A DNA stretch of 64,000 nucleotides from Marsupella aquatica (taxonomy: Eukaryota > Plantae > Marchantiophyta), in assembly GCA_973895155.1 (NCBI GenBank), contig OZ316899.1:16457974-16521973 (forward strand), read 5' to 3'. Both the position numbers and the translations under genes were made by a program. Below the pieces are notes generated by a model. The model was not told the origin of the DNA. It saw nothing but the letters and a program-made list of their open reading frames with translations, and searched no databases. Positions 4,125 to 60,507 of the stretch are shown one piece after another; positions within the stretch are counted from its first letter, which is position 1, and every line of letters starts with the position of its first letter.

Positions 4125-4135
4125 GCCTGCGCATG

Positions 4136-20628: not shown

Positions 20629-21037
20629 TGTGTCTATCCGGGGTAGTCTATGAATGTGAACTGTTGGAAATCAATGTCGAATGTTCAGAATGCTATAAAT
20701 GTCGGATTTAGCTGCCTTGAGCATTTTCGTGTGGATTTCGTGGATGGATGACTGTGGCGCTCTTCCTTCGTAAAAGTGAATGTGGGCAATTTGATGGAAT
20801 GCAAAGCCTCGCTGCAGGAATGATCGCTGATCTCTGGTGGGGGTCAATTAATCTCAAGTGTTGGGTGACGCTTCACAGAGTTTGGAAGAAAATCACGAAG
20901 ATGAGTTGTGGATACAATCGCTTTTGGGTAGTGCGTAGTATGGCATTGATGGCTTGTGATCTAGCTTGTTTGATTTGTGGACAGTCAGTTCATGTGCCAG
21001 TGTATGAGAAAAAAAATTCTATGCTCAGCTTTGGCAG

Positions 21038-21052
21038 CTCGTGCTGATAACG
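21038..21052 (-). promoter_or_regulatory. Copia primer-binding site (internal half-tRNA-iMet type)
   Basis: CGTTATCAGCACGAG immediately after the 5' LTR, without a TGG start; this PBS type is characteristic of Bianca. Confidence 0.75.
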
Positions 21053-21251
21053 TATTCAGAGACAAGAAGATGAGAGTAGAACATACACCAAAACTGGAGG
21101 TTCCCTCCAACTTCCATTACCTTATAGAGTCCCTAAGGACTCGATCTATTACATGCGGTTAGGTTGTTAGTAACAACCTAAGCTTCGGTTAGTTAGGACT
21201 AACTAACCCTACTATTATGACTCGGGTTAGTGTTAACTCCATATTACAACA
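21053..21251 (-). repeat. Copia 5' LTR (199 bp)
   Basis: Direct repeat of 15272-15471, followed by TSD TAGGC. Confidence 0.95.
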
Positions 21252-21505
21252 TAGGCATTATTTGCTAGGGTACAAGGTAATCTTTCATACTGATCATGAA
21301 AGTTTGAAATACCTAGTGAATAAGCCAGACCTTACAGGCAAGGTAGCAAGATGGATATTGCTATTATAGGAATTTGACTACGAGCTAAAAATCAAGCCGA
21401 GAAAGCTTTAGGGTTTAGGGTTTGTTTGCTGTTGTTTTTGCTTACAATTTAGCCTATAAATCCACTACCGGTCATACCCCCTTTTTCTTAACCTTTGGAT
21501 AAAAA

Positions 21506-31622: not shown

Positions 31623-34600
31623 CAAGTGGTGGACCTTGCCACCCAACACCCTCACCAATCCCAGCACTCGCGCCTAAGTGCCCCTGGTGCCCTGAATGCC
31701 TCCACGGAATACCTCGAGCAAGCACCCTAGTGCCCCTTGCACCGCCAACGGTTCCTCCCATACGAAGTCGCACTTGCTCACCTACACGACCGCTACTCAA
31801 TGGTCCTCACTGTCTGCACAAGCAACCAACCACCTCGGTAAGTAACCCCTCAGGATCTAGAACTCGCCAAGTCTAGCATCCTAACTCAACCTCAACAGAC
31901 GTTGGTAAATAGGTCAGCGATAGGTCCTCCCGATGCCATAAGCCAGAACCAGAACCCACGCCCATTGTCCGTCCAGGGGCACGGCCCGGGTTCCCCCTCA
32001 TACCTATACATCACCAACTGACCGCTCTGACCTCAGGACATGCTCATGGCCCAATTAGCGTAGCTTGTCCTAAAGCTTGTCCCAACACATCGGGACCAAA
32101 CTGGTCCCAATTCTAGCAACCAACTCCCAGGTTGCCTCACTAATGGTCCAGAGGCCGGACACTCTTGGGACTCAACCTCCTCACCTACTTGGCCTTGCCT
32201 CCCCAACGAAAACTCCCTTGGGAGACTGAACGCGGCTTGGTTGTTGTTCGGCAGGATTTGGCAAGCGGGCGAGTCAACACCCGCAAACCCCGAGAACCCA
32301 TGGCACCCCTAGACCCAGCTGAGCTCGAGAGCTTTCCAATGCATCCAAGATATCCGTTGTCCTCCAACGGACTTCCTGTTGGGAAGATATCGCCGTTTCC
32401 GTTTGGCGGTTTCCCTTAGTGTCGCGACCGTCGCGGCTCACAACTTTGGCTCGGCCTTAGCCCCCAGGGAGACACCACTGCCCTCATATATGCTTCTAGA
32501 GACCTGCCACCCCGGACCACCTTTGGTCCCTAAACATTTGACCCCCAACCCGGAACCTATCGCGCCTAATGGGCGCGCCATCAACTGGTAACACCCATAA
32601 CTTTCTCGTTAGGCATCCGCAAGCGGAGTGCCTTAGCCCGTTGTGATCGGGCCGACCCAGTGCTCATGCCTAGGCCCTCAGGTCTGATTGCCGCTCGGGG
32701 CCTCGACTGGCCCAACCCGTATCGGGCCACAACTTGCGCCCCAAGCGTTCGTTGCCCATGGCGTCAACTCCATTGGCCTTGGGCCCAAGAGGAGCTCACA
32801 CTCAAGTCCTCAGAACTCAAAGTGCATCCAGGGGTCCGGACGGCCATCCTTGAGCCCGGCCAATTTCCCCTTGACCCGACCAGCTATCAGCTAGTCCAAG
32901 TCCTTAGTGTGTGTCCCTAGCTTGGCTCCTGCCTCGCTGTGGACCGGCTCAATATAGGGTATGTAAGGAACTTGTCAATTTTTTTGTTGTTTGTACAAGG
33001 AATAGTAAGAAAGTTGTTGTAGTGTTAGCAAAGTACTTAGGGTTTGCAACCCTAAGTCACTAGGGAAGGCTAGTAGGAAATCATGGAAGGGAGAAAATGT
33101 GTTGTTCTAAGCAAATGTAAAGGGATAAGTAATGTGATTTTGGTAGGCAGCAAATGTTCCACCCTTAGTTAGGATAGGCGACTAAGTCGGGACCGGAAAA
33201 TGACCCGACACCTGACATCTTATTTTTGGCTGATATTTCTCCCATGGGTGCTGGGAGGTCCCTAGGGAACCCTGAAAAAGTATGAAGTCAAGTGGGGTCT
33301 CAACCTAGGAGTTGTGAGTATTTTGACAGAAATTAAAATAACCAACTAGCGGGCCCCGGAGAAAATAGCCAAGGGGTAAATTTTGTGGGTTCGAGGTTAT
33401 AATTGAGTTTAGTATAGACCATAATATCCCTGGATTGTCTCAGAAATAATTTGTCACCTTTTGTTATTTTTTGGGAACACCTCAAAGATTGGGAATAGCA
33501 ATGCGCTTTAATAGATATGGTCAAACTTATGTATTTTTAGAAAAGTCGTTATGGAGTGTTTAGAGAGTTTGATAAATTTAGGAGTGAGTCCTATGTCCAA
33601 GGATTCCAGAAATCTGCTCAGAAGTACTTTTGGACATTTGAGTGAATTATGGCATGGCCTTCAAGAGGGGCCAGTATAACTGTTTCTCCTGAGAGGAAAA
33701 CGAAAATTTTCTAAGTGTCAAAACGCGTCGACGCGGCTGCGACCAGACTAGCACGAGGTCAGGCAAGCACGACATGGGCAGGAATGCACGAGGTGGGCTA
33801 ATTGAAGGGCTGGTGCTCATCAAAATAGGCCACTCTTGATCTGAATAGGCAGGTGCAGGATTGAATTGAGCTAGCTGCTGCTGAGAAGGACTTGACCCAG
33901 CTGCTACTGTGAAATTGAATTGTGAGCTATGGCTGCTGATTGGAATAGGGAGGCTGGCTTTGAATTGGGAAGGTTGCTTGCTGCTATGGCAACGGCACAA
34001 TAGATTAGAGGTGCTGCTATTAATCAGGCATGAGATGCTCACGAGAATTGGCTGGCTGCTGCCTTGATGCTGCTGAATTGATGGATGCTGCTGCTAGCTG
34101 CGAAATTGCAGAGGTGGGCAGCTACGAAATTGAGGAGAGAGACCTGCTTGGCTAAGTGATTGGAATAGAGCTAGTTGTTGAGAAGGAATCAAGCTATGGC
34201 TGCTGCTGTGCTTCGAATCTGCTGCTATGCTTCGAATCTACTGTTGTGCTGTTGTGTTGCAAGCTGCGAATTGGTGGGCTATGGCTGCTGCAAAATTCTG
34301 CTGCGATTTTGAATCACTTGCAAGACTGGATGGCTATGGAGGTGGACTGAGAAGGGTGTTGTAGACTTGGCTGAGCTATCAATTGACCTGTTGTCATTTG
34401 ATCCAATAGAGAATGCTGCCGTTTCAGATTGAATTCAAGAGAGAGGAAAATGCTGCAAAAATTGGTGTCCTTATCAATCTTCTTCATAAGAAATATGAGT
34501 ATACTGAGAGTACTCTCCCCTCATGACACGTGGAATCCCCATAAGGGGCGTATAAGGTTCAAGTGTAATCGGGTCGCCGCTTACACCCGCTTTACACCAA

Positions 34601-37048
34601 AAATAGGCCTTGGGAGAATGGGCATAACTTTGGCTAGGGGTATCCGTTGGGGCCCAAATGTTTTTGTGCTGAGTTAGGGGAAGGTAAGGCACCCCTTGGT
34701 GAAGGTGGAAACCCAGAAAAATAATCACTCAAATATATTTTTAGCGGAGGCCACGAGGGGGTCCCCATAGCTTGCAAACGGGAGTTGGCATGGGGGAAGT
34801 AAGACCAGGTTTTTAGGCTGACACTTCTTGCACCCGTGTCACCCAAGTTAGGATACATGGAGAAGAGCGTACCTCAGGGTAAAGGTGCAAGGCCGTTAGG
34901 GTAAGGAAAGTAAGTTGATAGGTCGGGGTAGTAAGTAAGAACTAGTAAATAAGGAGCCAACTTTGACATGACACAACTTGAGACTCACTCACTCTTTTTG
35001 CGAGCTTTCAAGTGGGTTGGGAAGCTGGTGAGGAGGACCATAAGTGAGAGCAGGTTTGGAGGTCAAAGCATGCAACTCATGTGTGGCATATTCCAGGGCT
35101 TGGAAGGAGTCAAGCAATAGGTTGTAGAGTGAGCTACAAACTATAGAGTTGGACTTTGTGTGTTAGGAGGAATTGGGGGAGGAGTAGTTGGACCCCAGGT
35201 CAAGCTTGGTGTGGTGTGAAAGGAGAATAGTATATAAGGAGAAAGTTTTCCTTTGTTAGGGACCGGGAGTCTCATCTCTTAAGTGGAATCTCTACCTTGC
35301 CAAGGTAGGGCTAAGCTTGAGAAAGGAGAGGTGGTCCATGTTTAGTGTGGAGAATGTGTAGTGAACTTTTGTTGTAAAGGTGATACAATAAAAGGAGACT
35401 TGCCAATCTTCATTGTGACCATTAAGTGTGAGTGCATTTGAAGCATATGAGAGCAAGAGAAGAGTCCATGCTATGATGTAATCTTGGTCTAAGCTTGAAG
35501 GGGATGTGCTAGTACAAAACCAAGGCCAAGAGGCAAGGTTAAGGTAGAGCACTACTTTGAGACTTAGAGAGGATTATAGCTTGAGGGTGGAAAGTATTTT
35601 GCTTGGTGTGTGGTGTTAACAAGAAGTAAGAACAAGAGGAAGAGTCCTTAGATAGAGGAGCCTTCTCTAGAGCTCAAAGGGGATGTGTGGACCCAAACCA
35701 AGGCCAGGGGGGCAAGGTTGAGGGGTAACACTACTTTGAGGGTCTTGAGGAGACTTAAGCTTGAAGAGGAAAGTACTTTGGTTCTTGGGTGTTTGTGTGA
35801 GACTCTTCTCTAAGGTGACAGCTTGGAGCGGAGATCCCCCTTGCTGATCCTTGGAGTAGAGGAGAGGGGAAGGGTGCGAGTACAAAAGTAGTCAAGGGGA
35901 CTACCTCTCTAGAAGTGCAGAGTTGAAACTACTTATGTGTCACTTGCCTCTCCAACGGTTAATACGTGCAAACCGCACTTTTCTTCGCTTAAACCGTTGG
36001 TATCGTATTACGGGGTCGTGGAGGGACGCTATTTGGATTCTTTTCACACCAGGATGAGTATTTTGGTTTCCGCTCCCGGAAATGTAGGTTTTGATCAAGT
36101 CTACCGACTACCCTCACCCCACAGCTTTTGATCAAGTCCTGCCGACTACCCCACTACACCTTCACTCGGAGTCACCCAAAGAGTGCTGTCACCACCCCTA
36201 CTCACAAGGCCGACTCAAACCAAGCAAGTTTCTTCAAATCATAGAACGGGAGAACACAATTCGGAAAGCGAAAAAGGGAGAAGGAACACACAACAAAAGC
36301 CCATCAAGTCAAATGTACAGATCCATATCTCTTGGGAAAAACGATACACATTGCATGAGTAACCCGGCCTCCTGCCGTCTACTCAACTCCTGCCTCTCCG
36401 GACAATGAGTATGGCTCCCCCTCACTACTCTGAACACGCTTTCAAACTCCTCAGGCTCCACTCTATCCCTCCTTGCTAACTTCACACTGAGTCCCCCTAA
36501 CTACTTCGGGGCTATCCCCCTAAATACTGAAAAATCACACCAAAGCACCCCTCACAGGGTCACAACGGTGGCGGCTACCCTAGCGGCGCCGCTAAAACCT
36601 TGCACTAAGAGAAATCCTTAAACTGAAGAGGAGCATGCGGCACACACATGCTGCTAAAACCCTAAACCCAAAACAAGGGGGCCGACGGTGCCTTCGACGG
36701 CGCCCCAACAGTACACGTGAACCCTGAAAGTGAGAGGCACCCCAAAATGGCCGAAACTAGGTGCCCTTCCAAGTGCACACCTGAGCTCACCCCTGGATAG
36801 CTCTTCTTTTCCTGCTTCCGAATCACTAAGTCGCTCCCTCAACGGACTTCAGACGCCTGAGTTATGGCCGTTTCCGTACCGCAAAAACATAAGTTCTCCA
36901 GGCCATAACTTGCTCATCCTGGCTCCGTTTGAGGAGCGCCGCCTCTTGTTGGAATCAGCTCCGCGAGCTCATCCCAACAAGCCCATGAGTGACCCCCCAC
37001 TAAAATGTTGGAAATCTGGAGGCCGTACACCCACGTCCGTACGCCTAT

Positions 37049-38905
37049 CTAATCCTCCTCTTCTTCTTCGCTCTCGGTGCCCGGACTTGTGCCCCGTGAG
37101 TGGTCCTCCTCCTCATCACTCACGGGAGTGAGTGCCACCGTACTTTTCTTCTTCTTCGACGGAGTACTCTTAGTGCTGCTGCTCCCGCGCTTCCTCAAAG
37201 CAGCCAAGGCCTGCCACGCCTTGATGTACCCCTCACCAATTGTGTCCTTCCAGAGGGTAGCCTCTTCTCCGGACCGCAACTCCAACGGTAGAACTTGCCC
37301 CGTGGCCATGGGAGTCCCGGGGGTGACAGACCTGGGTGGCATCCCCGTACTGACCTGAGCCTCCCGTAACGATTTCCGTACCTCCCGGAGCTTCTTCTCC
37401 AAGCTCTTACTCTTCTCCTGACTCTTCTTGGCTCCATCCAACAAGGGTCCATACTTCCCACTAACCTCCTTCACCACCATCTCGATAGCTTGGGAGATCA
37501 CATCCGGGGAAAGTGTGGAGCCAGGTGTGCCGGGACTCTTCCGTTTCCCTAGACTCAGGGCCTCACTTCTCTTCGCTCGTGTCTCAAAGGCTGCCACCTG
37601 ACTCCGTAGTGCTCCCACCTGGTTCCTCCACTCCATCACTTCTCCAGAATTTTGCTTCTCTTTGGCCAATGCTTGCCTCAACGCTCCTACTTCTTCTGCT
37701 TCCTTGGCCTTGGTGGACAAAGCTCCCTTCAAGTTGGTGATCTCTACGTGAGCTGCATTGATGTGCCTGACCTTCTCATGAATGGTCTGCTCCTTGGTCT
37801 TGATCACCTCCTTCAGTGACAGGATGCTCTGCTCTAACGTCTCTACTTTGACTGTGGCGTGCTTGAGAGACTCCCTCAATGCGTGGACTAGCTTGAGTCC
37901 CTCGTGGACTCCCTCTCTGAAATCCCGTAGCTCTACCAAGTAAACATCCGGAATGTTGTATTCCAGAGGCTGTTTCGGATCTCCCACGAGTGATTCAAGC
38001 CACTCCAATGTGCAATCATCCTCCTGGTTCTCTTCTTCTCTATTATCCTCCCCACCAGCAGACAATGATTCCTCCGTGAGCTTCCCTAAAACGGTAGTGG
38101 CAATACTCCGGATCTCCGTGGTGAGAGATGATCCCGTGTCTTCATGCCCCGGAGAACCAATCAACCCTTCTGCCCTGGCCAATACAAATGACCCCATCAA
38201 ATGTACAGCCCCACCTGGTTTCACACTCCCGGGCTCAGCGGCCAATAGCTTCTTCAATCCGTAGCACCACCATCCGTACACATGGGCTGGGTAGTTCTTG
38301 ATGTCCATAGCTACCACGAAATGCTCCTCATTCAGCACTCCGGATTGCACGTTGCCAAGAACCCGTTGATGCACCTTGGCCAGGAAGCCCTTATACTCAA
38401 CATCCTTGACAGCAGAAAGAGGGATGGCGGTGGTGGAGGTAGGATTGGTCACCCAAGTGGCCACCATTTTCAACGTGAGTTCTCCCCTGATATTCCGAGG
38501 TGTGAATGAGAATTTCTGATTCTCAAGAAACAATAGCTTAGCCAACTCCACATGGGGCACTACACGTTTGAGACATTCAAAGTAGATTCCCTCCGTTCGG
38601 AACTCCATCCCGGCCTCAATGTCCCAGCTCTTCCCTGAAGGGATGGTAATCTCCACCTTCATGAATTCTGTAAGCCCGGTGGCTTGGAAAATGTTCCGAC
38701 AATCCTCCATCACCTTGGTGGAGGTCTTGGGATAAATTCGACGAAAAATCTTCCTACCCACCGGTGAGGAACCCGCTGCCAATCCCGTGCTCATCATAAC
38801 TTCTCTCTCTTCCCTTTCCCGTGTAATCCGAGTCTCCACGTAGTCACGGTAAGCAGCCTTGTATCTCCGAATGCGTGACGCACTAAACTCTGGTTGATCT
38901 AGCAT
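37049..38905 (-). CDS. LTR-encoded 618-aa accessory protein (3' LTR copy): globular N-half, acidic linker, coiled coil, basic NLS-like motifs, acidic tail
   Basis: Long open frame in the same sense as gag-pol; heptad-rich segment (aa ~340-440), GKRKSP and SKKKKS motifs; wholly within the LTR. Confidence 0.88.
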   Translation of the reverse strand: MLDQPEFSASRIRRYKAAYRDYVETRITREREEREVMMSTGLAAGSSPVGRKIFRRIYPKTSTKVMEDCRNIFQATGLTEFMKVEITIPSGKSWDIEAGMEFRTEGIYFECLKRVVPHVELAKLLFLENQKFSFTPRNIRGELTLKMVATWVTNPTSTTAIPLSAVKDVEYKGFLAKVHQRVLGNVQSGVLNEEHFVVAMDIKNYPAHVYGWWCYGLKKLLAAEPGSVKPGGAVHLMGSFVLARAEGLIGSPGHEDTGSSLTTEIRSIATTVLGKLTEESLSAGGEDNREEENQEDDCTLEWLESLVGDPKQPLEYNIPDVYLVELRDFREGVHEGLKLVHALRESLKHATVKVETLEQSILSLKEVIKTKEQTIHEKVRHINAAHVEITNLKGALSTKAKEAEEVGALRQALAKEKQNSGEVMEWRNQVGALRSQVAAFETRAKRSEALSLGKRKSPGTPGSTLSPDVISQAIEMVVKEVSGKYGPLLDGAKKSQEKSKSLEKKLREVRKSLREAQVSTGMPPRSVTPGTPMATGQVLPLELRSGEEATLWKDTIGEGYIKAWQALAALRKRGSSSTKSTPSKKKKSTVALTPVSDEEEDHSRGTSPGTESEEEEED

Positions 38906-39328
38906 CCATGCATCCCAAAATCAATTTCTCAATCACCAATCCCGTCACCCGTGGCAATGTCAATTCCCTGGCCCGAAACAGCCCCCGTAGCCCGATCACT
39001 TAAATTCTCTCAATTTCCCGTCACTACTCCGTGCGGCCGCCACTAATGCCTGGAAGAATGACGCCAGCAAGCCCCACTAATCCACCATGAAAGAGAGAGC
39101 TTCAAAAATAATTAGAATCTGGAGAGAGCTTCCGGCAAGAGAGAGAAGAACCCCGTTTTTGCTTTCGGCAATGAGAGGGTCGTGCAAAAGGAAGAGGGAA
39201 AGAAAAAGGAAGGAAAAAAAAATAGAACCGAAAAAACTCCTGGCGCCTTCGCCATGCGCCCCGGCCCATTTCTCGGGCCTTACCCTTGCGTCCTCCTGCG
39301 CGCGGCCCTATGCAGGGCGCGCGGCCAT

Positions 39329-39652
39329 TCCTCCCGGCTCGCGGGAGGCCCTTCAACTCCCCCCCGCTCGCGTGATCCTCCCAGCTCGCGGGAGGCCCTT
39401 TAACTCCCCCCCGCTCGCGTGATCCTCCCAGCTCGCGGGAGGCCCTTTAACTCCCCCCCGCTCGCGTGATCCTCCCAGCTCGCGGGAGGCCCTTTAACTC
39501 CCCCCCCCCCGCTCGCTTGCGCTCCTTCAGCTCGCGGAGCCTCATTAATTGCCCGGGCACGCAGCCCTATGGGCTCGCGAGGCAGCCCCTTCAGCTCGCG
39601 GAGCCCCATTAATCGCCCGGGCACGCAGCCCTATGGGCTCGCGAGGCAGCCC
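39329..39652. repeat. GC-rich tandem arrays in 3' LTR: 4 x 47 bp + 2 x 64 bp
   Basis: Unit TCCTCCCAGCTCGCGGGAGGCCCTTTAACTCCCCCCCGCTCGCGTGA; second unit CTTCAGCTCGCGGAGC...GGCAGCCC. Confidence 0.93.
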
Positions 39653-39980
39653 CTCTTTCTCTCGGACGGCCACTAATGGGACTCGCCCTCCTGAGGAGGG
39701 ATTTATTTAAAAAAAAACCCCCCCCTCTCCTGACTTTGCAATGGGGGTCTCAACAATAGCTCTTGAAGCAAAACGGTAAGTCCTATGGGGCTGGTCCTGG
39801 CTAGTTTCAAGGTCCCAAAATATTTGCCCACTTAGGTCGCCGCAAATCTTAGAACTATTATGAGAGAAAGAATATAAAGTCACCTGGGGCATCATCAACC
39901 TATAATGACGGAATTAACTAAAAATTAAAAAATGGCTTATTTACATTGACTATTAACAAGGTATCGGCCTTTGCAACCAG

Positions 39981-42900
39981 TTATGTGTGACTTCCCGTGA
40001 CGGGGTACCCGTCACATAGCTCCTCTCTTAATTGCGAAGCGCCCCCGCGAGCACCATACTCTTCCTCCGTGTAGTACTTCTTTAGGCGCTCTTGATTGAT
40101 CCGTGTGTTGAGTAGTTGCCCCTCCAATGTCTTGAGTTGAACCGAGCCGTTGGAGTAGACGGCATCCACTACGTAGGGTCCCATCCACCGTGTATGCAAC
40201 TTCCCGGGGAAATGCATGAAGCGGCTATCGTAGAGGAGCACCAAATCTCCCTCCTCAATGGACACACGACGGAGACGGGAATCGTAATGTGACTTGCGTT
40301 TGCCTTGCTCCTGCTCCGTATGTGTCAAAGCCTCTTCTCGTGTCTCCGTGAGTTGCTCCAACTGTTGGATCCGTGAAGCGACACTTTCTTCTGCCCCTTC
40401 CCTTTCCCGTGTTAGGATTCGAATGGTTGGAACCTCAAATTCCACCGGCACAAGAGAGTGTTGTCCAAACACAAGGAAATAGGGGCTGTGGCCCGTGGTA
40501 GTCTTGTGAGCCAGGTTGTAAGCGTAAGTGGCAGCCAACAACTTCAAATCCCAATCGGTCTTGTGAGCGGATACCGTTTTGTTGAGGATCTTGCCCATGA
40601 TCCCGTTGGCTCTCTCAGTGAGCCCGTTGGCTCGAGGGTGGTACGGAGTGGTCTTCCTATGTGAGATCAAGTAGTTCTCCGTCAAACGTTCAATCGTATG
40701 ATTGAGGAAGTGAGTACCCCTGTCACTTACCAACTCCAATGGTGGACCAAATCGTGTAAAAATCTGCTCATACAAAAAACGTGCCGTGGTGTTGGCATCA
40801 TCCTTGGCAGTAGCTCGGGCCTCCACCCACTTGGTGGCATAGTCCGTTGCAAGAATGATGTAGCGCTTCCTCCCTCTTCGTGTGATGGGAGTGAAAGGGC
40901 CAATGAAGTCCACCCCCCACTTCTCAAAGGGTGCAAGAGGAAGTATGGGCACCAATGGGTGTCGTGAGGAGGGCCCTGGTTTGCCTTGACGCTGGCACGG
41001 ATCACATCGCTGGATGTACCGGTGTACATCCCGAAAGAGAGTTGGCCACCAATATCCAGCATCTAGTATTTTCCTTGCGGTGGTCTCCCGTGCAAAGTGG
41101 CCACCAGCTTCCTCCTCATGTAATGCTGCCATGACTGTACGTATCTCCGCTTCCTCCAAACAACGACGAAGTCGGCCATCCATGCCGTACTTGTGAAGTA
41201 CTCCCTTCACAAGCAAGTAGGGACCTGTCTTACGCAAAAACACTGCTGCTCTCTCCGGGCCCAAACGTGAGGGAACTCTAGCCGTGCGGAGAAATTCCAA
41301 AATTTCTCCATACCAAGTAGTGGCCTCTGTATTCACGCTGAACACTTCCTCATCCGGGAACCGATCATCAATCTCCTGGGAGTCAGATGCTCCCTCAATA
41401 CGGGAGAAGAAGTCTGCATTGCTATGACTCTTCCCCGATCTTACTCTCACCTCATAGTTGAACTCTTGTAGCAACAAAACCCAACGTGCAATTCTCCCGG
41501 ACAGATCTGGCTTGTTGACCATGTATTTCAAGCTGTTGTGATCCGTGTGGAACACAACCTTGTACCCCAACAAATAATGACGATACTTCTTACAAGCGTA
41601 GATGATACCAAGTGCCTCCCTATCGGTGGGTGAGTAGTTTTTCTCTGCCGGGGCCAACTGCCTACTGGCAAAGTAGATGGGATGGTCTCTTCCATCATCA
41701 TCTAACTGACTCAAAACGGCACCGATGCAAAATCCTGATACGTCTACGTAAACATGGAATTCCTTATTCCAATTGGGCGTAATGAGCACGGGGGCCTCTA
41801 GCAATCGTTTCTTCAATTCATCAAAAGCAGCCTGACGGGAAGGAGTAGGTTCAAACTCACTTCCTTTTTTCAACATGGAAGTGAGTGGCATGGCTACCTT
41901 GGCAAAGTCTTTGATGAAGCGTCGGTAGTAGCCAACACACCCCAAGAACCCTCTCACTTCCTTCACATTCTTGGGAAATGAGACTGCTACCCACACGGCG
42001 ACCTTCTCACGATCAACTTCAATCCCTCGTGCAGACACTTTGTGGCCCAATAGGATTCCCTCCTCAATTCCAAAGAAACATTTCTCCGGATGCAGCTTCA
42101 GGCAAGTCTCCCGGCACCGCTGAAAAGTCAACCGTAAGTGTTCCGGATGCTTGACTCGTTTGCCGTAGACAGCAAAGTCATCAATAAAGATCTCCAAGAA
42201 CCTGCGTAAAAAGTCATGAAATATATTCATCATGAGCCGTTGGAACATGCCAGGGGCATTGCACAACCCAAAAGGCATTCTCCGGAATGCAAAAATCCCC
42301 CACTCTGTTGTGAAAGCCGTCTTGAGTTGGTCCTCCTCCCGTATCCAGATTTGGTTGTACCCAGAGTAGCCATCCAAGAAGCTGTATATCTCCCAACCTG
42401 CTACCATGTCCAACACGATATCCGTGAACGGTAGCGGGTAGTGATCCTTCTTGGTCGCATCATTCAACTTTCGAAAATCTTGGCACACCCGTATTTTCAC
42501 CTTCCCGTCTGGCCCCTTTTTCTTGGGCACGATTACGATGGGTGACACCCACTCACTATGCATGACCGGATAAATGAATCCTGCATCCAACAAACGGTCA
42601 ATCTCCTCCTTCACCATGAGTGAGTATTTGGGGTTGAGGCGGTATTGGCGTTGCCTCACAGGTCGTGCTCCTGACATCAGGTCAATGCTGTGCTCACCAA
42701 ACTCAGGTGGCACTCCTTTCAAATCTTGGTGGCTCCACGCAAATACGTCTTGGTACTCTTTCAACAATTCCTGAATCGTGCGTTGCTCCGTAGCATCCAA
42801 CTTACTACCAATGTTGAGTGTCTTGCCCTCACCCACTTCCACCTTTGTGTACTGCTCCGGCCTGATCACGTCCAACTTGTTGCGTGTCTCCTCATCAAAG

Positions 42901-45900
42901 GTTTCTTCCAACCGTGCGAGCCTCATCCCTCCATACACCGGTGCATCACTCTCCTCCTGGTCTGGTCGGGATGGAGGTGGATCCTTTGTCACATGGGCCA
43001 TTATTTCTTCAACGTCAGATTCTTTGTAATGTGACAATAGCTCCTCTCTAAAGTCATCATCCAGGATGTCATTCAAAAACTGCTCTCTTTGCTCATCATC
43101 AAACATGATCGTGTGGGCTTGCATTTCCACCTCCTCGGGGTGATCCTCTGCCTCCCTATCATGAATCTCTAGAGGTTCAGCCTCCACAATTTTGCTTCGC
43201 TCGTCTTCCATCTCTTCTAGAACAGCGTGCACTTGGCTAACTGATTCCTCTACTGCATGCTCTTGAGTAGCAACTCCGGGGCCAAAAACATCTTCCTCCG
43301 TGAGGTGAGAAATCAGTTTCACCATGTATACTTCATCCTCGTCTTCATCTGAGGTGACCTCTGAATCATATTCCTCCTCCATAGTCGTAGTCTCCCCGTG
43401 AGGTGACTCCGCTGACCATGGAATAGTGATAGTGGGGATACCAAACCGAAACTGCCGTTTGCCCCAATCACTTGTGACCTTGGCCACATACAACCATGGC
43501 CTGCCAATTAAAATGGGAAAACCGTACGGCCGAACGGGTCGCATCACCAAATAGTTGAGGGGGAAAGATTTTCCCCCAATCATTGTTGGAATCTTGGTGA
43601 GACACCCCAACGGCACCACCCGTGCACCATCAGCCAACCTCATGGCACGTGCCGGTGGTTCTAACTCTGTATACCCCAACCGGTTTGCCGTCTCCTCAGT
43701 CATGATGTTGACTCCCGAGCCCCCGTCCACCGGTACAAACCGTATTGCACATCCATTGATGTCCACCGTGAGTTCTGGGGCACCCAAATCCTCCGTGACC
43801 CAGTTGACTTGTATGGGGTCAGCCCCAACTTTGGGTAACCTTCTTCTACGTCTCCTCCTCATGAGAATCTCCTTGACTTGGCGACGGTATAGGGAGCTAT
43901 CCCGTAATAGTTGACCAATTGTGGCACTGACTGGGCAATCCAGAATGTCTTGAGCAATGTTGTACGCGGTTGCAGGAGGTATGGGTGGGATGACCTCTTC
44001 TCCCGGTTTCCAACGAACAACCCTCTCCTCCGCTTTCTTTCTGGCCTTTGCCTCCTCCATGTCTTTGTCAATGGCCGCTTGCATGGCTTGTGCTTCTAGC
44101 TCCTCCAACTGCTTACGTACCTCTTCTCCCACCTTCGGATAGAACAACTTGGGGTTGTCCCGATCAAAGTCACTATCCTCCATGGGTGGCACCTCCGGTT
44201 CGTGTGAGGTACCCGATGTGGAAGCTTGATGCACCTCCTTGTACTTCTGCTTGAGCTCGGACTTGCCCTTCTTTTTGCCGGATCGAGTGGAGACTCGGTA
44301 ACAAGAGTAATGCCTTCTCTCCTCGTCGCTGTCTTCCTCCGGTAGATTCTCAGCATGAGTCCACTCATGACTTGGGGGTGAGGGGTTAGCAACTTCAACT
44401 TCCGTAGATGTTGCAACAACAACCACCGGTATCTCAACAACTGGAGATACTACAACGACTAGCGGTACCACCTCCTCCGTTATGGTGGTCATCCTTTGCT
44501 TGGGAATGTTCACTACGGTTTCTTCTCTTCTAGTGATTAGAGGGGTGTCGACTGCTTCCGTGGTGAGAAAGTTGACGCTAGCTTCTTTCAGAGGAGGTGG
44601 CGGCCCCTTCTTCTCTTGTGCCCCAATCGGTTGAGCCTTGAACGCCTCCAAGGTTGGGCAGTGTGGTGCAAGATGACCCTCCCCCTTGCATAGTTGACAC
44701 AGCCGGGCAAAATCTCCATTGCCTTGACGGGTGGGCTCTGGGCACACATTAGCGTAGTGGCCCGCCACTCTACAATTGTAACAAATAGGGATCTTCCTCA
44801 CTCCAGGGTACGGTGGTCGATTCCCTGGGTTAGCGTTGGGATAGTTGGAGTATGCGGGTGCTCCGGCGTTTGTTGAAACTCCATGAATGCTCCGTGGTCC
44901 CGGGTTGAGAGGTTGTACACTATACACGTTGGCCTCTGGTGGCTCCTCCATGAAGTACTCTATTGGCCCTTCCGCTGCATATGAAGGATTTGAGTAGCTT
45001 GCCCCCTCAACATCCTCCTCCCGTACTTGGAAAACCTTGGCTGGTTCTCCCGCTGGGCACTCCTTCGGGGCATGACCAAACTTCATGCACTTGGTGCACC
45101 ACACATTGGCTCTCTCCACCGGAACTTTTCTCCTCTCAGGTTTGAGTCCGGCAAAATGTACTTTCAACGCTTTCATTTGCTCCGTCAGCTCATCATATCT
45201 GGCCTCTTGCTCCTTCAGGCGTCTTGCCGTAGACAATGGTGTAACGGCCACCGTGGGTAGTATCACTTCACGGTGAGAGGACTTCTTGACTTTCTTTGAC
45301 AACTTCTTCTTCTTCCTCCTTCGTCTTTCAGCTTCTGACTCCGTAGTGTCTGACTCTGTAGTACTCTCAGAATCCTCAGATTCATCACTACTATCTGAAT
45401 CAGATCCACTCGACTCCTCACTGGAGGAACTGTCAACCGGCTTCAGCTTCTTTCTTCGGCAACGCTTGCTTGTGGCATCAGCTGCGGTGTATGACTCCGC
45501 TGCTGCAATAGCTTCAGCCAATGTGGTTGGCTTGGCTTGACGTACAAAGAACCCCATCTTGCTTGGTAGGGCAGCCACAAACCAGGCTTGACGCATAGCA
45601 TCATCGGTACGGGCTTGGATCCGACGTACCAGCTTTTGGAACCTTTGCAAAAACCTCCGTAATGACTCCTTCTTCTTCATCCTGAGTTGGCCCACCTTTA
45701 ATAGTGAGGTGGCCTCCACTCCTATGGATCTGAACTCCTTCAAGAAGGCTTGCTTGAACAGAGCCCAATCAGCTTTCACGTTGGCCAACAACGAAATGAA
45801 CCATGGACCTGCCTCCCCTCTCATCATTCCAGGAATGATAGTGAGCTTATGTGCAGACTCCCCATTAGCTTCGGCAATCCCTTCAAACTCCTCAATCCAT

Positions 45901-46379
45901 TCGTCTGGATCATCCTTTGGTCTCCCCTTGAAGGGTACGTACTGAACACGGGTACGTTGTGCAGCTGCCATCGGTGCAGCCGGTGCCTGTATCAACACAG
46001 GTGGTAATGGCGCTTGTTGGGCCACCGGTAACAGCACCGATGATAGGTGTGAGATGATTTGTGGCAATGCAGTGAGCTCTGGGATCAGATTTTGTAACTC
46101 AGACTGCACCAACACAAAGGGCTCTCCTTCTTCTCGCTCGTGATCTATGTCTGGCTCTTCGTCTGGGCATATGGCCTCATTACGTTGAGCCTCTTCCTGT
46201 TGCACACCAACTTGTTCTTCCAGCACCAGTGGCAACCTCCTCTCTTCTGCAAGCCGTAAGCGTTCTTCGGCAGCAACTCGTCGTCTGGTCCCAATCCAAG
46301 AGGGCCCCCCTTCTAGCTCTGATCTTGGGGTACGTGTGTGTTGGGGACTTCCTCTACCTCCCCTTCTCCCTCTCGGCAT
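39981..46379 (-). CDS. gag-pol: Gag-Pol polyprotein (2132 aa): gag, 3 CCHC knuckles, aspartic protease, RT, RNase H, integrase with GPY motif
   Basis: CTKCMKFGHAPKEC / CYNCRVAGHYANVC / CQLCKGEGHLAPHC; VDGGSGVN; IFIDDF; VDVSGFCIGAVL; HEEEAGGH..CDPC; VDFIGP..SDRG..TERAN; WMGPY. No stops; the stop codon lies inside the 3' LTR. Confidence 0.97.
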   Translation of the reverse strand: MPRGRRGGRGSPQHTRTPRSELEGGPSWIGTRRRVAAEERLRLAEERRLPLVLEEQVGVQQEEAQRNEAICPDEEPDIDHEREEGEPFVLVQSELQNLIPELTALPQIISHLSSVLLPVAQQAPLPPVLIQAPAAPMAAAQRTRVQYVPFKGRPKDDPDEWIEEFEGIAEANGESAHKLTIIPGMMRGEAGPWFISLLANVKADWALFKQAFLKEFRSIGVEATSLLKVGQLRMKKKESLRRFLQRFQKLVRRIQARTDDAMRQAWFVAALPSKMGFFVRQAKPTTLAEAIAAAESYTAADATSKRCRRKKLKPVDSSSSEESSGSDSDSSDESEDSESTTESDTTESEAERRRRKKKKLSKKVKKSSHREVILPTVAVTPLSTARRLKEQEARYDELTEQMKALKVHFAGLKPERRKVPVERANVWCTKCMKFGHAPKECPAGEPAKVFQVREEDVEGASYSNPSYAAEGPIEYFMEEPPEANVYSVQPLNPGPRSIHGVSTNAGAPAYSNYPNANPGNRPPYPGVRKIPICYNCRVAGHYANVCPEPTRQGNGDFARLCQLCKGEGHLAPHCPTLEAFKAQPIGAQEKKGPPPPLKEASVNFLTTEAVDTPLITRREETVVNIPKQRMTTITEEVVPLVVVVSPVVEIPVVVVATSTEVEVANPSPPSHEWTHAENLPEEDSDEERRHYSCYRVSTRSGKKKGKSELKQKYKEVHQASTSGTSHEPEVPPMEDSDFDRDNPKLFYPKVGEEVRKQLEELEAQAMQAAIDKDMEEAKARKKAEERVVRWKPGEEVIPPIPPATAYNIAQDILDCPVSATIGQLLRDSSLYRRQVKEILMRRRRRRRLPKVGADPIQVNWVTEDLGAPELTVDINGCAIRFVPVDGGSGVNIMTEETANRLGYTELEPPARAMRLADGARVVPLGCLTKIPTMIGGKSFPLNYLVMRPVRPYGFPILIGRPWLYVAKVTSDWGKRQFRFGIPTITIPWSAESPHGETTTMEEEYDSEVTSDEDEDEVYMVKLISHLTEEDVFGPGVATQEHAVEESVSQVHAVLEEMEDERSKIVEAEPLEIHDREAEDHPEEVEMQAHTIMFDDEQREQFLNDILDDDFREELLSHYKESDVEEIMAHVTKDPPPSRPDQEESDAPVYGGMRLARLEETFDEETRNKLDVIRPEQYTKVEVGEGKTLNIGSKLDATEQRTIQELLKEYQDVFAWSHQDLKGVPPEFGEHSIDLMSGARPVRQRQYRLNPKYSLMVKEEIDRLLDAGFIYPVMHSEWVSPIVIVPKKKGPDGKVKIRVCQDFRKLNDATKKDHYPLPFTDIVLDMVAGWEIYSFLDGYSGYNQIWIREEDQLKTAFTTEWGIFAFRRMPFGLCNAPGMFQRLMMNIFHDFLRRFLEIFIDDFAVYGKRVKHPEHLRLTFQRCRETCLKLHPEKCFFGIEEGILLGHKVSARGIEVDREKVAVWVAVSFPKNVKEVRGFLGCVGYYRRFIKDFAKVAMPLTSMLKKGSEFEPTPSRQAAFDELKKRLLEAPVLITPNWNKEFHVYVDVSGFCIGAVLSQLDDDGRDHPIYFASRQLAPAEKNYSPTDREALGIIYACKKYRHYLLGYKVVFHTDHNSLKYMVNKPDLSGRIARWVLLLQEFNYEVRVRSGKSHSNADFFSRIEGASDSQEIDDRFPDEEVFSVNTEATTWYGEILEFLRTARVPSRLGPERAAVFLRKTGPYLLVKGVLHKYGMDGRLRRCLEEAEIRTVMAALHEEEAGGHFARETTARKILDAGYWWPTLFRDVHRYIQRCDPCQRQGKPGPSSRHPLVPILPLAPFEKWGVDFIGPFTPITRRGRKRYIILATDYATKWVEARATAKDDANTTARFLYEQIFTRFGPPLELVSDRGTHFLNHTIERLTENYLISHRKTTPYHPRANGLTERANGIMGKILNKTVSAHKTDWDLKLLAATYAYNLAHKTTTGHSPYFLVFGQHSLVPVEFEVPTIRILTREREGAEESVASRIQQLEQLTETREEALTHTEQEQGKRKSHYDSRLRRVSIEEGDLVLLYDSRFMHFPGKLHTRWMGPYVVDAVYSNGSVQLKTLEGQLLNTRINQERLKKYYTEEEYGARGGASQLREELCDGYPVTGSHT

Positions 46380-46596
46380 CCCATTGAGACCTGCATTCCA
46401 AACTTACACCAATGTCTCAGAAAGCAATATTTGTAAACATCAACCGTCGCACGATGCATTGTGGTTGACGTACAATAACAAAGTAACCAACAAACTTCTC
46501 ACGTATCAACCGTCGCAAGTTGCGTTGTGGTTGATAGGTTTGAACTCCCAATAGACGTAGCTCCCCTCCTTCGTGTCGTCAAACAAGAAGAAGGAT

Positions 46597-46614
46597 TCCC
46601 CGGCAGCGGTGCCA
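46597..46614 (-). promoter_or_regulatory. Primer-binding site, tRNA-Asp-like (Athila type)
   Basis: TGGCACCGCTGCCGGGGA vs canonical TGGCGCCGTTGCCGGGGA (2 mismatches); 20 nt from the LTR end. Confidence 0.8.
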
Positions 46615-47745
46615 AAAACAAAAGACCACACTTATGTCACTTGCCTCTCCAACGGTTAATACGTGCAAACCGCACTTTTCTTCGCTTAAACCGTTGGTAT
46701 CGTATTACGGGGTCGTGGAGGGACGCTATTTGGATTCTTTTCACACCAGGATGAGTATTTTGGTTTCCGCTCCCGGAAATGTAGGTTTTGATCAAGTCTA
46801 CCGACTACCCTCACCCCACAGCTTTTGATCAAGTCCTGCCGACTACCCCACTACACCTTCACTCGGAGTCACCCAAAGAGTGCTGTCACCACCCCTACTC
46901 ACAAGGCCGACTCAAACCAAGCAAGTTTCTTCAAATCATAGAACGGGAGAACACAATTCGGAAAGCGAAAAAGGGAGAAGGAACACACAACAAAAGCCCA
47001 TCAAGTCAAATGTACAGATCCATATCTCTTGGGAAAAACGATACACATTGCATGAGTAACCCGGCCTCCTGCCGTCTACTCAACTCCTGCCTCTCCGGAC
47101 AATGAGTATGGCTCCCCCTCACTACTCTGAACACGCTTTCAAACTCCTCAGGCTCCACTCTATCCCTCCTTGCTAACTTCACACTGAGTCCCCCTAACTA
47201 CTTCGGGGCTATCCCCCTAAATACTGAAAAATCACACCAAAGCACCCCTCACAGGGTCACAACGGTGGCGGCTACCCTAGCGGCGCCGCTAAAACCTTGC
47301 ACTAAGAGAAATCCTTAAACTGAAGAGGAGCATGCGGCACACACATGCTGCTAAAACCCTAAACCCAAAACAAGGGGGCCGACGGTGCCTTCGACGGCGC
47401 CCCAACAGTACACGTGAACCCTGAAAGTGAGAGGCACCCCAAAATGGCCGAAACTAGGTGCCCTTCCAAGTGCACACCTGAGCTCACCCCTGGATAGCTC
47501 TTCTTTTCCTGCTTCCGAATCACTAAGTCGCTCCCTCAACGGACTTCAGACGCCTGAGTTATGGCCGTTTCCGTACCGCAAAAACATAAGTTCTCCAGGC
47601 CATAACTTGCTCATCCTGGCTCCGTTTGAGGAGCGCCGCCTCTTGTTGGAATCAGCTCCGCGAGCTCATCCCAACAAGCCCATGAGTGACCCCCCACTAA
47701 AATGTTGGAAATCTGGAGGCCGTACACCCACGTCCGTACGCCTAT

Positions 47746-49602
47746 CTAATCCTCCTCTTCTTCTTCGCTCTCGGTGCCCGGACTTGTGCCCCGTGAGTGG
47801 TCCTCCTCCTCATCACTCACGGGAGTGAGTGCCACCGTACTTTTCTTCTTCTTCGACGGAGTACTCTTAGTGCTGCTGCTCCCGCGCTTCCTCAAAGCAG
47901 CCAAGGCCTGCCACGCCTTGATGTACCCCTCACCAATTGTGTCCTTCCAGAGGGTAGCCTCTTCTCCGGACCGCAACTCCAACGGTAGAACTTGCCCCGT
48001 GGCCATGGGAGTCCCGGGGGTGACAGACCTGGGTGGCATCCCCGTACTGACCTGAGCCTCCCGTAACGATTTCCGTACCTCCCGGAGCTTCTTCTCCAAG
48101 CTCTTACTCTTCTCCTGACTCTTCTTGGCTCCATCCAACAAGGGTCCATACTTCCCACTAACCTCCTTCACCACCATCTCGATAGCTTGGGAGATCACAT
48201 CCGGGGAAAGTGTGGAGCCAGGTGTGCCGGGACTCTTCCGTTTCCCTAGACTCAGGGCCTCACTTCTCTTCGCTCGTGTCTCAAAGGCTGCCACCTGACT
48301 CCGTAGTGCTCCCACCTGGTTCCTCCACTCCATCACTTCTCCAGAATTTTGCTTCTCTTTGGCCAATGCTTGCCTCAACGCTCCTACTTCTTCTGCTTCC
48401 TTGGCCTTGGTGGACAAAGCTCCCTTCAAGTTGGTGATCTCTACGTGAGCTGCATTGATGTGCCTGACCTTCTCATGAATGGTCTGCTCCTTGGTCTTGA
48501 TCACCTCCTTCAGTGACAGGATGCTCTGCTCTAACGTCTCTACTTTGACTGTGGCGTGCTTGAGAGACTCCCTCAATGCGTGGACTAGCTTGAGTCCCTC
48601 GTGGACTCCCTCTCTGAAATCCCGTAGCTCTGCCAAGTAAACATCCGGAATGTTGTATTCCAGAGGCTGTTTCGGATCTCCCACGAGTGATTCAAGCCAC
48701 TCCAATGTGCAATCATCCTCCTGGTTCTCTTCTTCTCTATTATCCTCCCCACCAGCAGACAATGATTCCTCCGTGAGCTTCCCTAAAACGGTAGTGGCAA
48801 TACTCCGGATCTCCGTGGTGAGAGATGATCCCGTGTCTTCATGCCCCGGAGAACCAATCAACCCTTCTGCCCTGGCCAATACAAATGACCCCATCAAATG
48901 TACAGCCCCACCTGGTTTCACACTCCCGGGCTCAGCGGCCAATAGCTTCTTCAATCCGTAGCACCACCATCCGTACACATGGGCTGGGTAGTTCTTGATG
49001 TCCATAGCTACCACGAAATGCTCCTCATTCAGCACTCCGGATTGCACGTTGCCAAGAACCCGTTGATGCACCTTGGCCAGGAAGCCCTTATACTCAACAT
49101 CCTTGACAGCAGAAAGAGGGATGGCGGTGGTGGAGGTAGGATTGGTCACCCAAGTGGCCACCATTTTCAACGTGAGTTCTCCCCTGATATTCCGAGGTGT
49201 GAATGAGAATTTCTGATTCTCAAGAAACAATAGCTTAGCCAACTCCACATGGGGCACTACACGTTTGAGACATTCAAAGTAGATTCCCTCCGTTCGGAAC
49301 TCCATCCCGGCCTCAATGTCCCAGCTCTTCCCTGAAGGGATGGTAATCTCCACCTTCATGAATTCTGTAAGCCCGGTGGCTTGGAAAATGTTCCGACAAT
49401 CCTCCATCACCTTGGTGGAGGTCTTGGGATAAATTCGACGAAAAATCTTCCTACCCACCGGTGAGGAACCCGCTGCCAATCCCGTGCTCATCATAACTTC
49501 TCTCTCTTCCCTTTCCCGTGTAATCCGAGTCTCCACGTAGTCACGGTAAGCAGCCTTGTATCTCCGAATGCGTGACGCACTAAACTCTGGTTGATCTAGC
49601 AT
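47746..49602 (-). CDS. LTR-encoded 618-aa accessory protein (5' LTR copy)
   Basis: Identical to 37049-38905 except one residue (VYLAEL vs VYLVEL). Confidence 0.88.
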   Translation of the reverse strand: MLDQPEFSASRIRRYKAAYRDYVETRITREREEREVMMSTGLAAGSSPVGRKIFRRIYPKTSTKVMEDCRNIFQATGLTEFMKVEITIPSGKSWDIEAGMEFRTEGIYFECLKRVVPHVELAKLLFLENQKFSFTPRNIRGELTLKMVATWVTNPTSTTAIPLSAVKDVEYKGFLAKVHQRVLGNVQSGVLNEEHFVVAMDIKNYPAHVYGWWCYGLKKLLAAEPGSVKPGGAVHLMGSFVLARAEGLIGSPGHEDTGSSLTTEIRSIATTVLGKLTEESLSAGGEDNREEENQEDDCTLEWLESLVGDPKQPLEYNIPDVYLAELRDFREGVHEGLKLVHALRESLKHATVKVETLEQSILSLKEVIKTKEQTIHEKVRHINAAHVEITNLKGALSTKAKEAEEVGALRQALAKEKQNSGEVMEWRNQVGALRSQVAAFETRAKRSEALSLGKRKSPGTPGSTLSPDVISQAIEMVVKEVSGKYGPLLDGAKKSQEKSKSLEKKLREVRKSLREAQVSTGMPPRSVTPGTPMATGQVLPLELRSGEEATLWKDTIGEGYIKAWQALAALRKRGSSSTKSTPSKKKKSTVALTPVSDEEEDHSRGTSPGTESEEEEED

Positions 49603-50025
49603 CCATGCATCCCGAAATCAATTTCTCAATCACCAATCCCGTCACCCGTGGCAATGTCAATTCCCTGGCCCGAAACAGCCCCCGTAGCCCGATCACTTAA
49701 ATTCTCTCAATTTCCCGTCACTACTCCGTGCGGCCGCCACTAATGCCTGGAAGAATGACGCCAGCAAGCCCCACTAATCCACCATGAAAGAGAGAGCTTC
49801 AAAAATAATTAGAATCTGGAGAGAGCTTCCGGCAAGAGAGAGAAGAACCCCGTTTTTGCTTTCGGCAATGAGAGGGTCGTGCAAAAGGAAGAGGGAAAGA
49901 AAAAGGAAGGAAAAAAAAATAGAACCGAAAAAACTCCTGGCGCCTTCGCCATGCGCCCCGGCCCATTTCTCGGGCCTTACCCTTGCGTCCTCCTGCGCGC
50001 GGCCCTATGCAGGGCGCGCGGCCAT

Positions 50026-50302
50026 TCCTCCCAGCTCGCGGGAGGCCCTTTAACTCCCCCCCGCTCGCGTGATCCTCCCAGCTCGCGGGAGGCCCTTTAA
50101 CTCCCCCCCGCTCGCGTGATCCTCCCAGCTCGCGGGAGGCCCTTTAACTCCCCCCCCCCCGCTCGCTTGCGCTCCTTCAGCTCGCGGAGCCTCATTAATT
50201 GCCCGGGCACGCAGCCCTATGGGCTCGCGAGGCAGCCCCTTCAGCTCGCGGAGCCCCATTAATCGCCCGGGCACGCAGCCCTATGGGCTCGCGAGGCAGC
50301 CC
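50026..50302. repeat. GC-rich tandem arrays in 5' LTR: 3 x 47 bp + 2 x 64 bp
   Basis: Same units as 39329-39652, with one fewer 47-mer. Confidence 0.93.
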
Positions 50303-50954
50303 CTCTTTCTCTCGGACGGCCACTAATGGGACTCGCCCTCCTGAGGAGGGATTTATTTAAAAAAAAACCCCCCCCTCTCCTGACTTTGCAATGGGGGTCT
50401 CAACAATAGCTCTTGAAGCAAAACGGTAAGTCCTATGGGGCTGGTCCTGGCTAGTTTCAAGGTCCCAAAATATTTGCCCACTTAGGTCGCCGCAAATCTT
50501 AGAACTATTATGAGAGAAAGAATATAAAGTCACCTGGGGCATCATCAACCTATAATGACGGAATTAACTAAAAATTAAAAAATGGCTTATTTACATTGAC
50601 TATTAACAAGGTATCGGCCTTTGCAACCAGTTATGTGTGACTTCCCGTGACGGGGTACCCGTCACATTATGTATGGAGTGATTAGTCATTGTAGGCACAT
50701 TTCAGAAGTTTTGTCAATTCTTTGTGACCCTGGTATGATATGGAGCAGGTATTAGGTAGTCTTTTGGGGAGAAAAGCCGCTTAAGCTCCTTGACAAGTGT
50801 TTGACACTCGCTAGTGCCACGTCTCATTGCCCGCAAGTCTCCCCATGCTAAGTCCTCCCTGGATGGCCTATCCAAGCCTGGACCATAAGGGAGCTCATCG
50901 TCGGAGTCAACGACGCCGGAGCTAAGTGTTAAGGTAGTTGAGTTCCGCGACTCA

Positions 50955-58500: not shown

Positions 58501-58843
58501 TGGGGTACCTCTCAAGGCCACTCTAGAGGAGGTTGAGAGTATGGTTGCTCACATTTGTGGGACTGTTGCTATGAAGGCAGCCATGGTAGAGATAAGTAAT
58601 GCCGATGAACTTGGAGCTGCGGTAATAGGTTCAGACACCGGTACAGCCACCATGGACTACCAGAATGTGAAGCCATGGAAGATCGATACCAAACGGATTG
58701 GAGAGCAGGCTTGGATTGAGGAAGTAAAGGCCAACGCTATCCAAGCCGTTTCCCAAGAAGATGCTGCTGCCGCTGCCGATGCCGGGGCCGATAAATCAGA
58801 ACCCGAGGTCGAGGAAGCCGAAGGAAGATCAAGCCGGAGCTGA
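55551..58843 (+). pseudogene. Decayed ~1090-codon retrotransposon accessory ORF with long coiled coil
   Basis: ORF pieces 55551-55787, 55830-56063, 56124-56429, 56318-56911, 56921-58138 and 58319-58843 are collinear, separated by single stops and about one frameshift. The VELMPALIEAVFALPQG motif resembles Gypsy extra-ORF proteins. Confidence 0.65.
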
Positions 58844-60420: not shown

Positions 60421-60507
60421 TTGCTTGTGCTTGACACGGCAGGAAGAAAGAAAGAAATGACGGGAAAGGGGAAAAATGGGCGCTCGGCCCTATGCACTCG
60501 AGAGGTA

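Follow-up and report, generated by a model that had tools for sequence, protein, structure and literature searches.

A 14.7-kb Ty3/gypsy retrotransposon lies on the minus strand of the 64,000-nucleotide stretch of Marsupella aquatica DNA analyzed here (contig OZ316899.1, positions 16,457,974 to 16,521,973; the window), and each of its two long terminal repeats (LTRs) contains a complete open reading frame (ORF) of 618 codons, ORF618. The element is intact, and its pair of direct repeats was located by self-BLAST and direct comparison. Since the whole element is on the minus strand, the repeat at 46635-50666 is the 5' LTR and ORF618 is in the sense orientation to gag-pol. The main features are as follows, in window positions.

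35933..35937, no strand: target-site duplication (TSD) TTATG, left, from the flank match
50667..50671, no strand: TSD TTATG, right, from the flank match
35938..40016, minus strand: 3' LTR, 4079 bp, TG..CA ends
46635..50666, minus strand: 5' LTR, 4032 bp, TG..CA ends
37049..38905 (read from 38905 to 37049), minus strand: ORF618, 3' LTR copy, uninterrupted 1857 bp, V at residue 324
47746..49602 (read from 49602 to 47746), minus strand: ORF618, 5' LTR copy, uninterrupted 1857 bp, 618 codons
39981..46379 (read from 46379 to 39981), minus strand: gag-pol, one ORF of 2132 aa with Gag, zinc knuckles, protease, reverse transcriptase (RT), RNase H (RH), and integrase (Pfam)
40017..40029, minus strand: polypurine tract (PPT) adjoining the 3' LTR, within the integrase coding tail
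46597..46614, minus strand: primer-binding site (PBS), tRNA-Asp type, 16/18 identity to the published tRNA-Asp PBS of FIDEL

The two repeats begin with TG and end with CA on either strand, and the 5-bp TSD TTATG stands outside both. They differ by two substitutions, one non-coding (49614/38917) and one in ORF618 (48632/37935, residue 324 A/V), and by one 47-bp tandem unit, so that the two copies of ORF618 differ at a single residue. The LTR-LTR divergence is 0.05%, indicating a very young insertion. In the 5' LTR, ORF618 is preceded by 1064 bp and followed by 1111 bp of LTR. The longest stop-free frame of the LTR is 623 codons, compared to a maximum of 321 and a mean of 166 in 500 dinucleotide shuffles, indicating that ORF618 is not a product of chance. 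Searches of the rest of the window by tblastn, hidden Markov model (HMM), and blastp gave no further relative of ORF618, and no terminal repeats or duplications surround it besides the tandem arrays described below. The original prediction of true LTRs, each enclosing a full 1857-bp sense ORF with about 1.1 kb on either side, is thus borne out by the ends, the duplications, and the measured flanks. It had also placed a PBS beside one LTR and a PPT beside the other. Both are present, but the PBS is not flush with the 5' LTR, from which 20 nt separate it, and the PPT is embedded in the coding tail of the integrase.

The domain order of gag-pol is Gag-PR-RT-RH-INT (Pfam), and its final 11 codons are inside the 3' LTR. 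There is a single RNase H, and neither an extra RNase H (aRH) nor a chromodomain was matched at E ≤ 1 with Pfam profiles (as distinct from REXdb profiles). The PBS was identified by reference to the tRNA-Asp PBS of FIDEL, as published (PMC2844528). One of its two mismatches is private to this copy, with ~98% of the read depth in contig pieces differing at 46610. The spacer that sets the PBS off from the 5' LTR (46615-46634, minus strand) is 20 nt long, compared to 9 nt in FIDEL and ~2 nt in a distant relative, L001, and the cDNA end would have to be trimmed by this length. Self-priming was considered for the spacer and set aside, as perfect complementarity in the LTR extends over 8 nt at most, and the best duplexes, for which there was no null model, are rich in G-U pairs. 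Five host-flank bases beside the 3' LTR, of which three belong to the TSD, equal the five bases after the 5' LTR at an offset of two (35928-35937 versus 46630-46634), by chance or through target-site microhomology. No Rfam match was found within the element.

Read depth was used to compare the gene with the rest of the element. Between 74 and 93% of the sampled words are present in each of six public runs, which are filed under three organism codes, and 4 of the 12 listed runs were compared over 39930-49860, with the first ~720 bp from the LTR start uncovered except for the first 87 bp. Depth was taken from pieces with 0-1 differences in runs X1 and X2, among 32 of 4847 contig pieces. Two diverged pieces (records 1 and 10) were dropped, and runs X7 and X8, which hold only low-depth exact LTR pieces and diverged pol pieces, were left out of the ratios. 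The ratio of ORF to internal depth is expected to be ~1 if the ORF is internal in sister copies and ~2 if it is in both LTRs. Among the pieces listed, X1 has depths of 687-724 for the internal region (5 pieces), 1599 for ORF618, and 1572 for the non-coding LTR, with ratios of 2.26 and 2.22. The X2 depths are 2729-2934 for the internal region (3 pieces) and 6012-6330 for ORF618-containing pieces (4 pieces), with ratios of 2.24 and 2.14. The presence of ORF618 in both LTRs therefore looks family-wide and not a one-off or an assembly error, because the ORF/internal depth is ~2.2 in two runs and the non-coding LTR is equally deep. The excess of ~0.2 over 2 could come from solo or truncated LTRs. 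As a rough estimate, if diverged contigs of low depth (16 in X1 and 58 in X2) represent single copies, a few tens of near-identical members make up the family.

When 1.84 billion representative proteins were searched exhaustively with phmmer (E ≤ 0.001), 13 homologues of ORF618 were obtained, with 26-60% identity and together spanning residues 1 to 617. Nine are unnamed Logan/ENA fragments, and four are proteins of the leafy liverwort Calypogeia fissa, the only named source (CAM6083533, CAM6129071, CAM6090912, and CAM6126659), which by itself makes a liverwort host likely. Homologue starts and ends align with those of ORF618. The mean BLOSUM score of replacements is higher than the neutral-simulation mean in all 13 homologues, and this conservation was matched by at most 50 of 1000 neutral simulations in 12 of them (78 of 1000 for the remaining one, P0007). 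For the five longest alignments, no more than 12 of 1000 simulations remain stop-free. Among 12 of the 50 indels, 11 are in the non-coding LTR and one is in ORF618 (3 nt, in frame). The codon usage of gag-pol correlates best with the true ORF618 frame (rho 0.67, compared to 0.52, 0.34, and 0.17). Word-index protein searches with ORF618 (a single search, an alignment with shorter proteins covering 30-37 aa, and a near-length alignment) returned no match, and no locus for ORF618 was found in metagenome contigs (0 of 36 candidates). At the level of sequence, ORF618 behaves like a gene and shows signs of protein-level constraint. These comparisons support two parts of the original prediction: replacements that are more conservative than neutral in every homologue are signs of constraint on an accessory gene, and the depth in two runs of different studies suggests that the ORF goes with the LTR across the family and is not a one-off rearrangement.

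The predicted protein has the following parts.

aa ~57-241: putative PMD/Transposase_32-like domain
aa ~320-445: coiled coil, from sub-threshold matches that were the only ones obtained with Pfam
aa 571-587: bipartite basic patch
C terminus: acidic tail

No transmembrane helix was found in ORF618 (maximum 19-residue hydropathy, 1.09), and an env-like ORF was rejected on that ground. Residues 57-241 align to the C. fissa protein P0009 with 28% identity (E 1e-19). For this part of P0009, the Atlas structure model gave 10 rows, all of them below the tool's family-naming bar; 8 are plant clusters, with template modeling (TM) scores of 0.57-0.67, and 4 of them carry Transposase_32, PMD, DUF1985, or ATHILA. 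ORF618 itself has weak feature matches to ATHILA (0.82) and Transposase_32 (0.81). Structure models of ORF618 reached a predicted local distance difference test (pLDDT) score of 35 from the single sequence and of 52 from eight sequences (predicted TM score, 0.32), and no sequence match was present in PDB. Taken by way of the modeled homologue, the N-terminal domain has with good probability a fold of the PMD type (the Transposase_32/ATHILA-ORF1/PMD/DUF1985 group), and ORF618 is probably not an orphan.

The element was compared to known lineages and systems. It shares with the Athila clade, as defined in REXdb (PMC6317226), a 5-bp TSD, a PBS of the tRNA-Asp type set off from the LTR end (tRNA-Asp PBSs occur in 72% of Athila; PMC6317226), one GAG-PROT-RT-RH-INT frame with no aRH or chromodomain match, and a sense extra ORF that is probably of the same fold group (ATHILA ORF-1, PF03078; Transposase_32, PF20167). 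However, Athila elements have a long stretch separating pol from the 3' LTR that contains the extra ORF, whereas here pol enters the LTR and the gene sits in the LTR. We therefore file the element as Athila-like and not as a member of Athila. Membership in Tat/Ogre/Retand was rejected, since the aRH of Tat elements was not detected here, as was membership in Phygy/Selgy, which are short, with a 4-bp TSD, a Trp/Ala PBS, and no extra ORF, whereas this element is 14.7 kb with a 5-bp TSD and an Asp-type PBS; only the compact internal region is in common.

Large accessory ORFs are also described for other plant Ty3/gypsy elements, namely Ogre (with PMD extra ORFs), Retand, Grande, and RIRE2 (with TRP28 antisense ORFs), and the Tekay element Retrosat2 (ORF0). 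Some of their products have PMD-type or coiled-coil (SMC-like) domains and a nuclear location, and some of their LTRs are 3-5 kb long. In contrast to ORF618, these ORFs are described as internal and single-copy, and mostly antisense (Ogre and Retand) or 5' of gag. Accessory ORFs of plant LTR elements are placed in the internal region (PMC7264820), and the portions available of PMC11963269, PMC3485330, PMC11728184, and PMC2844528 agree. The Cassandra terminal-repeat retrotransposon in miniature (TRIM) has 5S rDNA-derived sequence in both LTRs (PMC12486564), and so likewise doubles a gene-derived unit in a plant retroelement. Cassandra is a miniature element that is not autonomous, and its unit is a short non-coding RNA sequence, whereas ORF618 is a 1.9-kb protein gene in an autonomous element. 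Full-text literature searches, with some key sources beyond reach, yielded no description of plant LTRs that enclose a protein gene. As ORF618 probably belongs to the known PMD/Transposase_32/ATHILA-ORF1 group, what is new and undescribed is the position of the gene, whose product is probably of a kind already known among the accessory proteins of plant transposons.

Coding sequence in the U3 region of retroviral LTRs, doubled by reverse transcription, is familiar from sag of mouse mammary tumor virus and nef of human immunodeficiency virus. Those proteins are unrelated to ORF618, and they belong to animal retroviruses with much shorter LTRs.

The following smaller features bear on how the gene came into the LTR and how it may be expressed.

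50646..50666 (5' LTR) and 39996-40016 (3' LTR), minus strand: 9-bp hairpin opening each LTR, -14.2 kcal/mol as RNA
50026..50304, minus strand: GC-rich tandem arrays, 5' LTR, 47-bp unit x2.8 and 64-bp unit x2
39329..39654, minus strand: GC-rich tandem arrays, 3' LTR, upstream of ORF618, 47-bp unit x3.8 and 64-bp unit x2
47354..47362, minus strand: telobox-like motif downstream of ORF618 (consensus AAACCCTAR)
47495..47507, minus strand: PPT-like tract in the 5' LTR, candidate relic of an earlier PPT/LTR start, with the same tract in the 3' LTR
46558..46570, minus strand: PPT-like tract in the 5' leader, where a PPT is not expected, reached in 20 of 1000 internal-region shuffles
46388..46395, minus strand: splice-acceptor-like TGCAG/GT, 11 nt 5' of the gag ATG, a lead only

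The final 11 codons of integrase read through the LTR-start hairpin.

The reading that we favor, with slightly better than even confidence, is of a young Athila-like element whose LTR gene was likely captured into U3 through a shift in priming and whose product, predicted to be a nuclear protein of the PMD/Transposase_32 type, would help to keep the LTRs of the family unsilenced. In the ancestor, gag-pol would have been followed by tract A, the accessory ORF, tract B, and a short LTR. If plus-strand priming moved to tract A, the PPT at the pol end, all sequence downstream would have become U3, so that the gene would now be copied into both LTRs by reverse transcription and would persist in the solo LTRs that recombination produces. 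ORF618 would be expressed from an LTR promoter upstream, where GC-rich arrays are followed by a pyrimidine-rich leader. The PMD-like domain may bind DNA or chromatin, the coiled coil may serve oligomerization, and the basic patch may direct nuclear import. The protein would then counter the silencing of LTRs of its own family, acting in trans, like VANC and MAIL1/MAIN. According to a preprint (bioRxiv 10.1101/2024.09.27.615353), PMD-C proteins counteract silencing by Polycomb and are similar to the DUF1985 domain of VANC, an anti-silencing protein, and the Gypsy-encoded PMD-A proteins (PMC5418596) offer a second analogy. MAIL1, MAIN, and MAIL2 (PMD-C) and VANC (DUF1985) share the predicted fold group with ORF618, and, as far as these texts describe them, they are nuclear and work against silencing at sequence motifs. 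However, they are genes of flowering-plant hosts or of DNA transposons, and no sequence-level match between them and ORF618 was found. By this analogy, ORF618 is likely a nuclear LTR-directed anti-silencing or activating factor, with the GC-rich arrays and the telobox-like motif of the LTR as its candidate sites.

The candidate relic tract at 47495..47507 has the same ending as the working PPT and begins 239 bp past the ORF618 stop, with 860 bp of LTR left beyond it; it was reached by 4 of 1000 shuffles of its own segment. A comparable layout is seen in L001 (46% identity over RT-RH), in which purine tracts stand right after pol and right before an LTR-like segment of ~650 bp, with a small ORF between them. 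This layout is an analogy and not the ancestor of the element. L001 also has a domain order that is unusual for a gypsy element: in its polyprotein (2-7153), the integrase zinc finger (H2C2) occurs in two stretches, and another aspartic-protease domain, the second, comes after the integrase (aa ~2010-2100). Its small, unassigned ORF (7291-8022) is behind an acceptor-like site.

Several results weigh against the favored reading. The depth of contig pieces is crude and not a copy number, it comes from 32 of the 4847 pieces, and the window may itself originate from X1 or X2. The selection and stop-free tests are biased upward by local alignment, hit selection, and ORF calling, and 9 of the 13 homologues are short unnamed fragments without placement in their elements. 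The link to the fold takes two steps, through P0009, with every Atlas row under the naming bar. PMD-type Pfam models matched neither ORF618 nor 5 homologues, and the weak ORF618 model (pLDDT 52) gave nothing at E ≤ 0.001 with Foldseek in PDB and BFVD. The pattern of the relic tract was picked post hoc, and 48 of 1000 whole-LTR shuffles reach it. It is followed by TC and not TG, and a third such tract is in the 5' leader, where a PPT is not expected. The small ORF of L001 has no detectable relation to ORF618. No TATA box was found downstream of ORF618, and with a pyrimidine-rich leader before the gene and a U-rich stretch after it, placement in the R region of the LTR fits equally. From these motifs, our own estimate gives U3 an even chance, R a lesser one, and U5 a small one.

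If ORF618 is in R (or U5), transcription would start upstream of it, early polyadenylation would yield a monocistronic mRNA, read-through would yield the genomic RNA, and a spliced RNA would provide gag-pol. GC-rich arrays and then the pyrimidine-rich leader 5' of ORF618 and the U-rich stretch 3' of it are consistent with this arrangement, as are multiple ATGs in the leader, the lack of a TATA box past ORF618, a single GTAAG donor-like site at 49980, and the acceptor-like site 11 nt 5' of the gag ATG. However, chance alone would supply about one donor motif of this kind in 4.4 kb, no relic PBS was found upstream of ORF618, and the missing spacer between pol and the LTR would be left unaccounted for. 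We consider the arrangement possible but rather doubtful; it can coexist with an origin by U3 capture if the start site shifted later. We hold equally tentatively that the protein has another job than anti-silencing, such as the export of particles or RNA, the targeting of integration, or a role like that of env. PMD-type retrotransposon proteins appear without a tested role in the available parts of PMC7264820, PMC11963269, and PMC11728184, and the long coiled coil would fit a scaffold, with the fold assignment being indirect. However, an env-like role does not fit a protein without a transmembrane helix, and the basic patch and the PMD/DUF1985-like domain suggest the nucleus.

ORF618 could also be a passenger, a captured gene or a piece of another element that is open only because the burst is recent. 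The LTR divergence of only 0.05% and the fragmentary state of many homologues are in line with this. However, homologues at 26-49% identity retain long open stretches, conservative replacements, and an aligned start and end, the gene has no flanking terminal repeats or duplications except the tandem arrays, and its codon usage is like that of gag-pol, so we regard a passenger as improbable. Least probable by far is a one-off rearrangement or assembly artifact that duplicated an internal ORF plus a short LTR. No single contig among the compared runs spans the whole element, but the TSD, the TG..CA ends, and the three LTR-LTR differences speak for a genuine insertion, and in two runs of different studies the ORF618 contigs are as deep as the non-coding LTR and ~2.2 times as deep as the internal region. 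A stronger form of the favored U3-capture reading, that each LTR, including solo LTRs, is a self-contained PMD/VANC-like anti-silencing cassette of U3 gene and own binding sites that keeps the whole family unsilenced in trans, doubled per transposition and the first such plant lineage, seems to us unlikely.

Other features of the window were also recorded. A decayed relative of the element (10900-15471 and 21053-21520, plus strand; 66% identity over RT-RH) is split by a copia-like insertion at ~15272-21251 with 200-bp repeats, and no ORF618 relative was found beside it. Three consecutive open frames at 56312-58840 (plus strand; 199, 408, and 183 codons, the middle one rich in coiled coil) have no Pfam family and no match to the ORF618 homologues, and may be an accessory gene of another element. 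An intronless ORF with two BRCT domains (1979-2851, minus strand) is possibly a transposon-borne gene, as its neighbor is a transposase region of CACTA-like type, with DUF4218 at 5968-7365. Copies of another repeat, 78-90% similar and in both orientations, are at 31625-32521, 50810-52180, and 60507-62597, one of them ~140 bp from the right end of the element.

LTRs are usually viewed as non-coding, and the formation of solo LTRs as the host neutralizing an element. If ORF618 is expressed from the LTRs, solo LTRs would retain a trans-acting protein, and its dosage would increase with every insertion. A gene, its putative promoter, and candidate target repeats are together in a single unit of 4 kb, in a family that is very young and multi-copy, which may provide a handle on the long-open question of the job of PMD/ATHILA-ORF1-type extra genes in plant Gypsy elements. 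The shift of the PPT is suggested as a simple route by which internal genes may turn into LTR genes, and annotation pipelines that mask LTRs would overlook such ORFs.

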